Made by a program: the position numbers and the translations under genes | Notes under the pieces: generated by a model | What the model was told of the DNA's origin: nothing | The model's database searches: none | The model's input: only the letters and a program-made list of their open reading frames with translations | From: a virus | Lineage: Duplodnaviria; Heunggongvirae; Uroviricota; Caudoviricetes | Strand: one strand, 5' to 3' | Length of the DNA: 10,385 nucleotides | IMG/VR virus record: IMGVR_UViG_2778261543_000007 | Shown here: positions 6,098-10,385 of the stretch, piece after piece | Position numbering within the stretch: the stretch's first letter is position 1 | How the letters are laid out: the number at the start of each line of letters is the position of its first letter

Positions 6098-7120
6098 ATG
6101 TCTATCAATGCACTTAAGGCAGCGGCTACCGGTAACCAAGTTGCACATCATAATGAGAAACCAACAACTCTGGCCGGACTTCTGGCAGACCCAAAAATTA
6201 AAGCTCAGATGGCTTTGGCACTTCCAAAGCACATGACAGCAGACCGTCTGGCGCGCATAGCAACCACAGAGATCCGAAAGGTTCCAAAACTTGCATCATG
6301 CGACCAAGCCAGCTTCCTGGGGGCAATTATGCAATGTGCCCAATTGGGTCTTGAACCAGGCGGAGCTCTTGGACACGCTTACCTGATACCGTTCGACAAA
6401 CGCCAGAAAGTAAATGGAAGATGGGAAACCGTATCTACAGAAGCACAGCTGATTATCGGCTATCGCGGAATGATTGACCTTGCCCGCCGCTCTGGGCAGA
6501 TCCTGAGTATCTCGGCTCGTACCGTACATACAAACGACAAATTCAGCTACTCATACGGCCTGGAAGAAACGCTCGAGCATTTACCTTGCGAAACAGGTGA
6601 CCGAGGAGAATTAACGCACGTTTACGCCGTTGCACGACTGAAAGATGGCGGAGTCCAATTTGAAGTTATGAGCCGGGCAGACATTGAGAAAGTTCGTGCA
6701 CTGAGCAAAGCCGGTAGCAGTGGCCCATGGGTTGATCACTTCGATGAGATGGCTAAAAAAACAGTAATTCGCCGACTATTCAAATATCTTCCTGTTTCTA
6801 TTGAAATGCAGAAGGCTGTTGTTATGGATGAGCGCGCTGAAGCTGGACTTAGCCAAGATAACGCAGCTGTTATCACTGGTGAATATTCCGTAGTTGACGA
6901 TGAGCGTCAACACCTGTCGCCAATTTCAGATTCAGAACGAGAAGAAGCTCGAGAATATATCATCGCGATACTTAATAGCCTGGATCCATCTGCTGAAGAT
7001 GCAAAAACGATGTTCAAGCGCGCTGAAAATGAGATTAACACCATGGCTGAAAAGCTCGGTGATGAATATCACCAAAAATTCATGATGACGCTTAACGATA
7101 TGCGTCCAGAATTCGAGTAA
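6098..7120 (+). CDS. recT: RecT-family single-strand annealing recombinase
   Basis: Strong SD TAAGGAG 6 nt before the ATG. RecT-like central region ...LIIGYRGMIDLARRSGQI...; paired with the upstream exonuclease. Confidence 0.8.
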   Translation: MSINALKAAATGNQVAHHNEKPTTLAGLLADPKIKAQMALALPKHMTADRLARIATTEIRKVPKLASCDQASFLGAIMQCAQLGLEPGGALGHAYLIPFDKRQKVNGRWETVSTEAQLIIGYRGMIDLARRSGQILSISARTVHTNDKFSYSYGLEETLEHLPCETGDRGELTHVYAVARLKDGGVQFEVMSRADIEKVRALSKAGSSGPWVDHFDEMAKKTVIRRLFKYLPVSIEMQKAVVMDERAEAGLSQDNAAVITGEYSVVDDERQHLSPISDSEREEAREYIIAILNSLDPSAEDAKTMFKRAENEINTMAEKLGDEYHQKFMMTLNDMRPEFE

Positions 7121-7128
7121 CCACCACC

Positions 7129-7147
7129 GCGGCGCCACACGCGCCGC
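7129..7147 (+). other. GC-rich hairpin between recT and the alpA-like gene
   Basis: Perfect 7-bp stem GCGGCGC / GCGCCGC with loop CACAC. No T-tract follows, so it is not a canonical intrinsic terminator. Confidence 0.3.
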
Positions 7148-7169
7148 ACTGCAACCAAGAGAGGTATTC

Positions 7170-7418
7170 ATGAAAGGTGCATTAGGTAAGAAAGAACTCC
7201 TGGCGGTGGTGCCACTGTCATGGAGCACTATCGACCGTATGGAGCGCGCAGGGGAATTTCCTAAACGCTGGTATATCACCGATAAACGCTGCGCATGGAA
7301 CCGTGATGAAGTTGAGCGTTGGCTTGATGAACGTCAGGCAGCAAGCCCGGCAGAGTTCCAGGGTAAAAAGCCTCCTGTTCAGCAACGTGTATATCGTCCC
7401 GTGAGCAACGCTGCATGA
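7170..7418 (+). CDS. AlpA-family phage transcriptional regulator / excisionase-like HTH protein
   Basis: 82 aa. ...LSWSTIDRMERAGEFPKRW...WNRDEVERWL... matches the AlpA/Xis-like pattern. SD GAGAGG before the ATG. Confidence 0.7.
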   Translation: MKGALGKKELLAVVPLSWSTIDRMERAGEFPKRWYITDKRCAWNRDEVERWLDERQAASPAEFQGKKPPVQQRVYRPVSNAA

Positions 7419-7443
7419 GTGCGCTGCTAAGGCACTGGAGCAA

Positions 7444-7527
7444 ATGGTCAGGATGGTACTTATTCCTGGCCTCTGTTTCAGCATGGCTTTATCTGCTGGC
7501 ATTAATTTTCAGAGAGGGTTGGATTAA
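7444..7527 (+). CDS. Possible small hydrophobic peptide (27 aa)
   Basis: ATG 7444 with GGAG 3 nt upstream (short spacing). Translation MVRMVLIPGLCFSMALSAGINFQRGLD. Its stop TAA (7525-7527) directly abuts the GTG at 7528. Speculative. Confidence 0.2.
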   Translation: MVRMVLIPGLCFSMALSAGINFQRGLD

Positions 7528-7827
7528 GTGAGAAAGTTAAGCCGACTTGAAAAATATCACATGAATAAGGTTTCAATGCGCAGTCCGTCAAAGATTGTCG
7601 CCGTTACTCCTGCGGCGATAGATATCGAAAAACGCGCGATTGAAAGAGAGAAAAAAGGGCAATTCCGCATTGCCGCTCACCTTTGGCTTCAGTGTATGGA
7701 TGTTGCTTCTGGTGATGTTGAACGTGCAAGGATCGCGGTTCGCAGGGACCAATGTATCACAAAAGGTAACGGCCTTCGCCGTGGCGACTATAGCGGCATA
7801 GGATGTTGTGGGGTGGTTTATGACTAA
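7528..7827 (+). CDS. Hypothetical protein (up to 99 aa; start uncertain, GTG 7528 or ATG 7561)
   Basis: ORF ends 5 nt after the methyltransferase ATG, i.e. overlaps it. No motif recognised. Confidence 0.45.
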   Translation: MRKLSRLEKYHMNKVSMRSPSKIVAVTPAAIDIEKRAIEREKKGQFRIAAHLWLQCMDVASGDVERARIAVRRDQCITKGNGLRRGDYSGIGCCGVVYD

Positions 7828-8470
7828 GAAATACACACTAATCTATGCAGATCCACCCTGGGTATACCGGGACAAAGCCGCAGATGGTAATCGCGGTGCC
7901 GGTTTTAAATATCCGGTTATGAGTGTGCTGGATATCTGCCGCCTTCCTGTGTGGGATTTGGCCGATGAAAACTGTCTGTTGGCCATGTGGTGGGTGCCAA
8001 CACAACCACTCGAAGCACTAAAAGTTGTTGAAGCCTGGGGATTCCGTCTGATGACGATGAAGGGCTTCACGTGGATAAAATGTGGTAGTCGACAACCAGA
8101 TAAACTGGTTATGGGTATGGGACACATGACTCGCGCCAATAGTGAAGATTGCCTGTTTGCGGTAAAGGGAAAACTACCTACGCGCATTAATGCAGGGATC
8201 GTTCAGTCATTTACCGCACCGCGGCTTGAGCATTCAAGAAAGCCAGATGTCGTTCGTGAAAAACTTGTGCAATTGTTAGGCGATGTTTCTCGCATTGAAC
8301 TGTTCGCCCGCCAGACGTCTCATGGCTTCGATGTTTGGGGTAATCAGTGCGAAGACCCGGCAGTGCAACTACACCCTGGATACGCGTTGGATATCGGCGG
8401 ATTAACAAATGCATTCAGCAATGCTCCGCTGTCACCAACAGACAACCAGGGGCGGGAGCGTGCAGCATGA
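7820..8470 (+). CDS. MT-A70-family N6-adenine DNA methyltransferase (orphan, no cognate nuclease seen)
   Basis: Translation from ATG 7820 gives ...[14 protein letters not shown]..., the DPPW catalytic motif. GGGGTGG precedes the ATG. Stop overlaps the phosphatase start (ATGA). Confidence 0.75.
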
Positions 8471-9126
8471 ACCTATATCAACGCATCAATGGCGCTGACT
8501 GGTGCAATATCTTCGTCGTCGGCGATCTGCATGGGTGCTACACGCTGCTGATGAACGAACTCGACAAAGTTTCATTCGACCCGGCGCGCGATTTGCTTAT
8601 TTCCGTTGGTGACCTTGTTGACCGCGGCGCTGAAAACGTCGAATGCCTGGATTTGATTACTATGCCGTGGTTCCGAGCTGTTCGTGGCAACCATGAGCAG
8701 ATGATGCTGGATGCACTGGTCAACGGCGGAAGTTTCGGACATTGGATGTCAAACGGCGGTGGATGGTGGCACCAACTTGATTCTGAGCAGGATGTGCAAC
8801 TCAAATACCTTCTGCCAAAGGTTACCAACCTCCCGATGATTATCGAACTGGTTACCGGCAATAAGAAGGTCGTCATCTGCCACGCAGACTACCCGCACAA
8901 CGAATACGCATTCGATAAGCCAGTACCGGAAGAAATGGTGATATGGAATCGTGAGCGGGTTAGCGACGCGCAGGACGGTATTGTCTCGGAGATAACCGGT
9001 GCCGATTTGTTCATCTTCGGTCATACGCCAGCACATCACCCACTGGTGTATGCAAACCAAATGTACATCGACACCGGCGCAGTGTTCTGCGGAAATCTGA
9101 CGCTTACCAAAGTCCAGGAAGGATAG
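8467..9126 (+). CDS. Serine/threonine protein phosphatase (lambda PPase / PrpA-like metallophosphatase)
   Basis: Metallophosphatase motifs GDLHG, GDLVDRG and GNHE in order. Start taken at ATG 8467, coupled to the upstream gene, rather than the ORF-track start at 8347. Confidence 0.8.
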
Positions 9127-9128
9127 AA

Positions 9129-10385
9129 TTATTTATTACTGTCTTCCATCCACTTCTCAAACTTCGACGGGGAGAACGGAATCAGATCCGTATGCTCCCC
9201 GTCAATCCAGGAATCAATCATATCTGCCCACTGCTGCAACATGTAGGCGCGCTGTCTGGCGTATTCCGCTTTGTTATATACGGCGCGCACACCTTTCTGC
9301 TCATGTGCCAGAGCCTTTTCAATCCAGTCTGAAGGATAACCAGCCTCATGCAATAACGTACTGGCTGTACGGCGCATATCATGTACGGTGAAGTCCTGAA
9401 TATGCTCACCATCTTCATTTATTATTTTCACCGTTCTGTCGATCAGAGAGTTCAGCGCGGCATTAGATAATGGCTTCCGGAAGTTGTAACGACCAGGAAC
9501 CAGATATTCACTTCCACCAGCGCACATCTGCAACCCGACCAATATATCCTGTGCCTGTTTAGGCAGGTAAATAACATGCGCCCGGCTTCCCTTCATGCGG
9601 TCTGAAGGAATTGTCCATGTCCATTTTTTAAAATCTATTTCGTCCCACGTTGCATTGGTGAATTCGCCTTTACGAACCATAGTGATAAGCACCAGCTTTA
9701 AAGCCATTTTCATAGTGCCCATAGCACCAATGGCATCCAGCGTGCGGAAGAACAGGCCAATTTCTTCTGGTGTCAGTGTTCGCTCTCGTGGTTTAAATAT
9801 GGCGATAGACGAAGGTTTAATGTCAGCCGCAGGATTAAACAAACCATGACCACGGTCATTGGCGTGACGGTATACGCTGCTGATGATCTCCCTGGCCTGT
9901 ACTGCTGTTGCCCGGCCACCGCGTTCGACAATCCGGTCACACAAATCACGAACCATCGATGTGGTAATTTCAGCCATCATTTTGTTGCCAAGAACCGGAA
10001 GTATGTCACGGTCGATCACTGCCTGCTTCATTGCGCGGGTACTTTCAGCCAGGATGACGTGTTTCATATAACTGTCGGTATGTACCGCAAACGTCTCGGC
10101 ACCACGAATCTTTTTGATACCGTCACGTTTAGCCGCAGCCGGTGACTGGCCTGCTTTAAGCAGCTTCTTTGCAGCAATCAGTTCTTCTCGCGCTTCTGCC
10201 AGGCTGATACCGTCACGCCCATACTGCCCGATTACCAGTGTTTCGCGGCGACCGTTGATACGGTAGTCATAGCGAAACGAGACCGTACCTGACGTAAGCA
10301 CAGCTACATACAGCCCGTCACGATCGGAAACTTTGTACAGTTTGTCCTGTGGCTTGAGGTTCTTTAATTTTGTATCGGTAAGCAC
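9129..10385 (-). CDS. int: Tyrosine recombinase / phage integrase; N-terminus at or just beyond the window edge
   Basis: N-terminal LTDTKLKNLKPQDKLYKVSDRDGLYV... resembles the P4-type integrase arm-binding domain. C-terminal catalytic region has HDMRRT and ...RAVYNKAEY. Stop TAA at 9131..9129, only 2 bp from the phosphatase stop. Confidence 0.85.
   Translation of the reverse strand: MLTDTKLKNLKPQDKLYKVSDRDGLYVAVLTSGTVSFRYDYRINGRRETLVIGQYGRDGISLAEAREELIAAKKLLKAGQSPAAAKRDGIKKIRGAETFAVHTDSYMKHVILAESTRAMKQAVIDRDILPVLGNKMMAEITTSMVRDLCDRIVERGGRATAVQAREIISSVYRHANDRGHGLFNPAADIKPSSIAIFKPRERTLTPEEIGLFFRTLDAIGAMGTMKMALKLVLITMVRKGEFTNATWDEIDFKKWTWTIPSDRMKGSRAHVIYLPKQAQDILVGLQMCAGGSEYLVPGRYNFRKPLSNAALNSLIDRTVKIINEDGEHIQDFTVHDMRRTASTLLHEAGYPSDWIEKALAHEQKGVRAVYNKAEYARQRAYMLQQWADMIDSWIDGEHTDLIPFSPSKFEKWMEDSNK

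Follow-up and report, generated by a model that had tools for sequence, protein, structure and literature searches.

Exchangeable cargo downstream of a conserved MT-A70 methyltransferase gene: a lambda NinI-type phosphatase in the probable early operon of a phiV10-like E. coli prophage

The right-hand part of the window, i.e., the whole stretch of 10,385 nucleotides that was analysed (IMG/VR record IMGVR_UViG_2778261543_000007), holds a gene for an MT-A70 family adenine methyltransferase whose stop codon overlaps the start codon of a gene for a serine/threonine phosphatase of the lambda NinI type. Based on comparisons with several hundred related prophages, the pairing looks like a result of phage mosaicism and not like a dedicated two-enzyme system. 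In our explanation, which we consider probable as a whole, the methyltransferase gene would be a conserved resident of the early operon of a phiV10-like phage, and the gene that follows it would be exchangeable cargo, with most relatives carrying the lambda orf63 homolog (DUF1382) in that position and one sub-lineage having had it replaced by a captured NinI-type phosphatase. The two enzymes would be made together from a single early transcript and would then act independently of one another, the phosphatase probably being an accessory that modulates the host in the manner of the lambda enzyme.

The window comprises the early arm and the integrase of a temperate podophage of the phiV10 type, resident in E. 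coli as a prophage. Its nucleotide sequence is 98.6% identical to that of phage vB_EcoP_PAS61 (a temperate podophage of the genus Uetakevirus) and 99.7% identical to that of one prophage adjoining guaA, and outside the position occupied by the phosphatase gene phiV10 and many of its relatives are 98-99% identical to it. In complete E. coli genomes the equivalent module adjoins guaA, with a P4-type integrase at the end of the prophage, and the region probably represents the distal part of the early operon, i.e., its recombination and accessory genes, in a phiV10/epsilon15-like Uetakevirus that integrates beside guaA. The positional counterpart in lambda is the exo-xis region, which likewise lies between the recombination genes and int. 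The methyltransferase-phosphatase arrangement is itself already known: PAS61 and RefSeq prophages such as that of E. coli Ecol_AZ146 have it in identical form, at 98.6-99.7% identity and with essentially zero differences across the region, and their annotations name the two products “MT-A70 family methyltransferase” and “serine/threonine protein phosphatase”, although the paper on PAS61 does not mention either gene. At an identity of at least 98% the pair occurs in 143 complete genomes and two phage records, one of them PAS61, an isolated temperate phage, and the other BP9; as an outcome of phage mosaicism it is unremarkable. No Rfam families were found in the window.

The plus strand of the window encodes, in order, two small ORFs, a YqaJ exonuclease, RecT, an AlpA-family regulator, an ORF of 38 amino acids, a PerC-like protein, the methyltransferase and the phosphatase. 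The start of this rightward early operon is probably the promoter-like site on the plus strand at 4676..4704 (TTGACA-17-AATTAT; a consensus match only, at 10 of 12 positions), which directly follows the terminators of the repressor gene (4605-4657), and a scan for consensus terminator-like sites returned none on the plus strand between that site and 10151. The AlpA-family gene (7170..7418, plus strand; Pfam Phage_AlpA, E=3.1e-05), a probable excisionase gene, overlaps the next ORF at its stop through an ATGA. That next ORF (7415..7531, plus strand), intact and sharing 4 nt with each of its neighbours, is equivalent to the gene for the p35 membrane protein of phiV10, and its counterpart is annotated in both phiV10 and PAS61. 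The gene for the PerC-family small protein (7528..7827, plus strand) starts at GTG 7528 or at ATG 7561 or 7576, and its end (TAA 7825-7827) runs 8 nt into the start of the methyltransferase gene. The preliminary description had reported this overlap correctly, but its term “hypothetical” for the upstream ORF did not hold up, as the product matches Pfam PerC (E=5.8e-07) and PHROG 868 (E=1.3e-61) and is named “PerC family transcriptional regulator” in RefSeq. The methyltransferase gene (7820..8470, plus strand; ATG 7820, TGA ending at 8470; 216 aa) is followed by the phosphatase gene (8467..9126, plus strand; ATG 8467, TAG ending at 9126; 219 aa), and the P4-type tyrosine integrase gene (9129..10385, minus strand; Pfam Arm-DNA-bind_3, E=3.9e-20, and Phage_integrase, E=1.4e-19) converges on the operon, its stop lying 2 nt from that of the phosphatase gene.

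The names given earlier to the two enzymes, adenine methyltransferase and Ser/Thr phosphatase, were correct. The methyltransferase matches the Pfam MT-A70 family (PF05063) along the entire profile (1-172/172; E=2.5e-22, 80.1 bits versus a cut-off of 23.9) and the PADLOC model MTase_II (E=1.7e-77). Its catalytic motif YADPPW occupies residues 9-14, and the DPPW within it (residues 11-14) aligns with the DPPW of ciliate MTA1 and is invariant in six phage homologs. The phosphatase, a Mn-dependent enzyme of the NinI type, belongs to the calcineurin-like metallophosphatases (Pfam Metallophos, E=1.2e-15), matches the NinI-like PHROG 246 (E=9e-108) and has its match to lambda phosphatase (NinI, ORF221; PDB 1G5B) at E=6.7e-100, the two proteins being of equal length and aligning without gaps at 66.8% identity. 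It contains the signature motifs GDLHG (GDxHG), GDLVDRG (GDxVDRG) and GNHE, and its residues D20, H22, D49, D52, R53, N75, H76, H139 and H186, which we take to be the metal ligands and catalytic residues of 1G5B, are identical to those of the lambda enzyme. It did not reach the NCBIfam equivalog cut-offs for the E. coli host phosphatases PrpA/PrpB (266 bits versus 326, and 221 bits versus 332). Both enzymes look catalytically competent, as far as their sequences can tell.

The evidence that the phosphatase gene is cargo came from the alignment with phiV10. In the p34-p33-p32 genes of that phage (PerC-like, methyltransferase and DUF1382) the backbone is 98-99% identical to the window, and gene order and overlaps match up to the methyltransferase stop. 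The identity runs through the ATGAA at 8471 and resumes only at 9146, inside the last codons of int; between these points phiV10 has a gene of 64 codons for a DUF1382 protein (orf63 of the lambda exo-xis region), starting in the same ATGA, and the window has the phosphatase cassette in place of both orf63/DUF1382 and the last integrase codons. The right end of the cassette (9127..9145) includes the last integrase codons and stop, and by hand translation from the alignment the integrase ends in ...WMEDSNK in the window versus ...WMAGE in phiV10. A search of the rest of the window and of 25.8 kb of the L010 prophage region found no DUF1382 gene. The left boundary of the slot would be the ...GCAGCATGA stop/start junction, and its right boundary the final codons of the convergent integrase gene.

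Of the 5426 complete E. coli genomes surveyed, about 545 contain the module, with DUF1382 in the slot in 372 genomes, the phosphatase in 143, and other genes in the remainder, e.g., an 82-aa ORF together with the antirepressor Ant. Every one of these alternatives begins in ATGA and is preceded by the conserved sequence GGGCGGGAGCGTGCAGC. The junction as a whole, GGGAGCGTGCAGCATGA (8454..8470, plus strand), which takes in the Shine-Dalgarno sequence of the downstream gene as well as the start/stop overlap and the left edge of the slot, is identical or nearly so in phiV10, PAS61, Tyrion and the variants with Ant or DndB. Among the window and 80 IMG/VR loci with methyltransferase homologs, no gene recurs beside the methyltransferase gene more often than DUF1382/orf63 (22 of 81 loci), which is situated downstream of it in phages of the phiV10 and PA8 types and upstream of it in four others. 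Only four of the 80 loci (L022, L024, L029 and L030) have a NinI homolog at a distance of at most 6 kb from the methyltransferase gene, and all four belong to one lineage with an identity of at least 97%. The preliminary description had conjectured a combined role for the methyltransferase and phosphatase; the swapping of the slot (372 genomes with DUF1382 versus 143 with the phosphatase) and this confinement to a single lineage argue against such a functional unit. On the other hand, the phosphatase form, present in 143 genomes, is stably maintained, and this would be compatible with selection for the combination. The single-lineage distribution suggests that the pairing arose through a single acquisition that later spread, and not recurrently.

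As to where the phosphatase came from, its closest relatives outside the lineage are the NinI proteins of HK225 and phi80 (79% nucleotide and 79.5% amino-acid identity). Lambda, HK225, phi80 and further lambdoid phages carry ninI in their nin region, which is part of the rightward operon, with ninE/ninG on one side of the gene and ninH on the other. The gene in the window is outside any nin region: on a Uetakevirus backbone it closes the recombination/accessory operon, after the methyltransferase gene and against int. The GC3 of the phosphatase gene (0.61 versus 0.41-0.51 in the neighbouring genes) also sets it apart. In HK225 and phi80, ninI follows ninE across the same CAGCATGA junction as that of the window slot, the ninE/ninI junction of HK225 likewise ending in these letters, and it is plausible that they provided the microhomology for capture of the phosphatase gene; around the slot, repeats were limited to short chance matches. 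A single capture from the nin region of a lambdoid phage, through recombination at the gene-boundary microhomology, is the probable origin of the phosphatase. As the nearest candidate for the donor is only 79% identical, the capture event is inferred.

The absence of a restriction endonuclease partner, claimed earlier, was borne out: the other ORFs of the window contain no restriction endonuclease family (by Pfam matches and annotation, which a novel nuclease among the hypothetical proteins could escape), and the 49 annotated genes of PAS61 contain no restriction enzyme (by annotation only). “Orphan” is a fair label for the methyltransferase on these sequence grounds. It would be a solitary m6A writer, the candidate targets being phage or host DNA (at GATC-like sites) or rRNA. 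The best-informed comparison is with M.EcoPA8orf6770P, the gp5 of the Stx2a phage PA8, which is 83% identical over residues 1-187, the catalytic core. It and M.EcoGV share with the window enzyme the MT-A70 fold family, the N-terminal TLIYADPPW motif and a prophage origin, and the PA8 gene, too, belongs to a temperate phage and sits near its integrase end, with a start that overlaps the gene upstream. The differences are that PA8 is a Stx phage of the Sepvirinae and the phage of the window a Uetakevirus podophage; that the gene upstream encodes PNB-2 in PA8 and the PerC-like protein in the window; that the gene downstream encodes DUF1382 in PA8, as in phiV10, and the phosphatase in the window; and that the C-terminal tails are unrelated, the alignment stopping at residue 187 and the window enzyme lacking the PA8-type tail. 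M.EcoGIX and M.EcoGII were dropped as precedents, neither being a documented relative of the window methyltransferase (M.EcoGIX is a plasmid-borne, single-strand-specific enzyme).

According to Gong, Chakraborty and Koudelka (PMC10810198), the PA8 enzyme on its own has almost no activity on DNA or GATC in vitro, binds PNB-2, the product of the gene directly upstream, in a 1:1 complex and in this form prefers 16S rRNA; it also raises spontaneous prophage induction and virulence, and the authors suspect that its C-terminal tail contacts PNB-2 and matters for formation of the holoenzyme. From these precedents one could argue that the window methyltransferase is mainly a 16S rRNA m6A enzyme that tunes translation and induction, with the PerC-like protein substituting for PNB-2 and the phosphatase an unrelated passenger. 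The 83% identity of the catalytic core favours such a role, as does the overlap of the methyltransferase start by an upstream gene in the window as in PA8, and as does the tail, which past residue 187 differs from the PA8 type, the one suspected of touching PNB-2. We nevertheless regard it as unlikely. The PerC-like protein has zero detectable sequence similarity to PNB-2, and tblastn found no PNB-2 homolog in the window, in the 25.8 kb of the L010 prophage region or in the parts of PAS61, phiV10, Tyrion and SPC32N that were searched. An identical methyltransferase tail occurs with different genes immediately upstream (PerC-like, DndB or Tyrion gp30), and at one locus (L089) the PerC-like gene has remained with the phage backbone although a 45% identical MT-A70 relative replaces the methyltransferase. 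Because the tail is constant across these upstream genes, and because of the L089 case, there is little support for the PerC-like protein as a dedicated partner, and its role as an analog of PNB-2 was rejected as the leading model (no similarity, no covariation of the tail) and kept as a minor rival. Moreover, the closest solved relatives of the methyltransferase by sequence are the ciliate MTA1 DNA 6mA methyltransferases (E=3e-13), ahead of METTL3 (E=5e-06), and the PA8 study does not name the modified rRNA base (PMC10810198).

The interval between the PerC-like gene and the methyltransferase gene is a second variable position. In some of the relatives in E. coli and Salmonella it is occupied by a DndB/DGQHR protein, and in phage Tyrion by two small ORFs. 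No PADLOC model matched the PerC-like protein.

A more elaborate version of the cargo explanation would have the junction between the methyltransferase stop and the 3' end of int act as a dedicated hotspot, with the CAGCATGA boundary allowing orf63/DUF1382, NinI and Ant to be swapped, the phosphatase conferring an advantage, and the methyltransferase modifying rRNA either without PNB-2 or with some other small partner. If this version were true the advantage could be, e.g., the countering of a kinase-based host defence or stress response. Taken with all of its parts, we think it improbable.

Direct reading of the sequence and a script both confirmed that the methyltransferase stop and the phosphatase start share the ATGA at 8467-8470, an overlap of 4 nt. 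The junctions between successive plus-strand genes in the window measure -13, -4, +9, +49, -4, -4, -8 and -4 nt, i.e., six of the eight overlap. The survey of the window and the 80 IMG/VR loci (methyltransferase homologs of 44-100% identity; a downstream ORF was called at 77 of the 81) found the -4 overlap at the methyltransferase stop at 49 of 77 loci, spanning 21 unrelated families of downstream proteins, and upstream overlaps of -4 or -8 at the methyltransferase start at 54 of 77. As they have been kept across hundreds of genomes, the overlaps are not due to chance; they are a generic packing feature of the whole operon and not special to the methyltransferase-phosphatase pair. The phosphatase gene has its own Shine-Dalgarno sequence (GGGAG, 8454-8458, with an 8-nt spacer), and no unusual RNA structure masks its start, the local fold being about that of shuffled sequence (z=-0.07); a gating of the gene starts by RNA structure was rejected, no such structure having been found. 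Hence, of the earlier view that the three genes are one co-translated unit, the layout for co-transcription stands, there being no intervening plus-strand terminator-like site. A ribosome hand-over at the ATGA is possible, and strict coupling would be a possibility only, given the separate Shine-Dalgarno sequence and the unremarkable fold.

These observations bear directly on the proposal that the two enzymes co-evolved for counter-defence as a translationally coupled pair, in which self-methylation would protect against restriction and the phosphatase would rewire phospho-signalling by the host or its defences. The ATGA overlap, the shared operon, the missing cognate endonuclease and the conservation at 98% or more in the 143 complete genomes, PAS61 and BP9 are all in its favour, as is M.EcoGV, a close relative which, as Fang et al. 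2012 is cited in PMC10810198, methylates GATC in vivo when overproduced. We give the proposal very little credence, however, since about three quarters of otherwise near-identical prophages have unrelated genes in the slot, the same ATGA coupling occurs with 21 different downstream families, the pair does not recur independently among the 80 diverse loci, and the phosphatase start is neither masked nor dependent on a neighbour for its Shine-Dalgarno sequence. Neither the phosphatase nor the alternative cargos matched a defence model in PADLOC. GATC sites are not depleted in the window (36 versus 42.9 +/- 6 expected), a count that is uninformative on the specificity of the enzyme, and in E. coli Dam already methylates GATC. 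An anti-restriction role of the methyltransferase by itself remains conjecture, and is complicated by the weak DNA activity in vitro of the relative with the 83% identical core and by its preference for 16S rRNA in the presence of its partner (PMC10810198).

The phosphatase is best seen, from its sequence, as an early accessory enzyme whose substrates would be phosphorylated proteins of host or phage and which would act independently of the methyltransferase. The literature on the role of NinI in the phage life cycle yielded only lists of non-essential genes. A mycobacteriophage metallophosphoesterase was set aside as a parallel, being a DNA-damaging enzyme and not close. It would be far-fetched to see the phosphatase as acting on nucleic-acid ends, i.e., as a 2',3'-cyclic phosphodiesterase/3'-phosphatase that heals RNA cut by anticodon nucleases or RNase defences: lambda phosphatase reportedly has 2',3'-cyclic phosphodiesterase activity in vitro (Keppetipola and Shuman 2007), and at the family level the window phosphatase weakly resembles ApaH and the phosphatase domain of polynucleotide kinase-phosphatase, Pnkp (NCBIfam TIGR04075, E=1e-10), but a kinase or ligase partner was not found nearby, and by far the best matches are the protein phosphatases lambda PP and E. 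coli PrpA/PrpB.

The value of these analyses is mostly corrective. That a stop codon overlaps the next start codon in a phage operon is no evidence that the two genes work as a pair. Nor should this enzyme, which is widespread in prophages (its module is present in about 10% of complete E. coli genomes), be called an anti-restriction orphan DNA adenine methyltransferase as a matter of course: its only close relative studied biochemically has a preference for 16S rRNA when bound to a partner that the window lacks. What retains interest is the substrate of the methyltransferase and the natural variants of the slot: the polymorphism of orf63, NinI and Ant constitutes a natural set of near-isogenic prophages that could serve as a test bed for the functions of orf63 and of the long-unexplained NinI phosphatase of lambda.

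The genes from AlpA to the phosphatase are linked by more than the junctions flanking the MT-A70 methyltransferase. A 38-codon ORF (window 7415-7531, + strand), whose equivalent in phiV10 is annotated as a membrane protein, shares ATGA with the AlpA stop at its start and shares GTGA with the start codon (GTG) of the PerC-like ORF at its end. With this ORF overlapping a neighbour on each side, as read from the window junctions, the genes from AlpA to the phosphatase overlap in a chain without a break. A second variable slot separates the methyltransferase from the PerC-like gene: certain relatives from E. coli and Salmonella have a gene for a DndB/DGQHR protein inserted there (1829-2896 in the relative L009 and 1437-2504 in SPC32N; Pfam DndB, E = 3e-46), and the stop of that gene overlaps the methyltransferase start through ATGA.

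The commonest recurring neighbour of the methyltransferase was DUF1382 (lambda orf63), found in 22 of 81 loci (the window and 80 IMG/VR loci with methyltransferase homologues). It lies downstream of the enzyme in phiV10-type and PA8-type phages (7068-7262 in phiV10, 2056-2268 in PA8) and immediately upstream of it in four loci (L031, L032, L053 and L057), an association that may reflect a functional tie to the methyltransferase or mere common residence in an exo-xis-type region. In a further locus (L091, 5567-6654), a PNB-2-like protein with 53% identity to PNB-2 of PA8 is encoded directly upstream of an MT-A70 enzyme only 44% identical to that of the window, and so the adjacency of PNB-2 and methyltransferase recurs over divergent enzymes, which is consistent with the published partnership (PMC10810198). 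In two 89%-identical methyltransferase loci (L036 and L037) the enzyme is shorter than in the window, and a small ORF that follows it (6588-6779) has ...NAPLAPSDNQGK..., resembling the C-terminal tail of the window enzyme, a likeness in sequence that suggests the tail has been frameshifted or re-partitioned.

Elsewhere in the early arm the recombination module is mosaic. In the window (5189-7120) separate genes encode a 299-aa exonuclease of the YqaJ type and a 340-aa RecT; phiV10 has an annotated RecE-RecT fusion (3961-5721), and other relatives carry a PD-(D/E)XK nuclease with RecT or Bet. The O/DnaT-like replication gene (window 2433-3248, minus strand) contains iteron-like tandem repeats at 2845-2950, in units of 24 nt (2.6 copies, 100% match) and 18 nt (3.1 copies), which by analogy with lambda O are probably the phage replication origin.

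At the other end of the operon, the stops of the phosphatase (9126, + strand) and the integrase (9129, complement) are only 2 nt apart (window 9124-9131), an arrangement shared with phiV10. Scanning the window, in which the region beyond the phosphatase reaches 10385, revealed no terminator-like site on the + strand up to 10151. Given these tail-to-tail stops and no such site before 10151, the early operon would run antisense across int, and such reading could down-regulate int during lytic growth.
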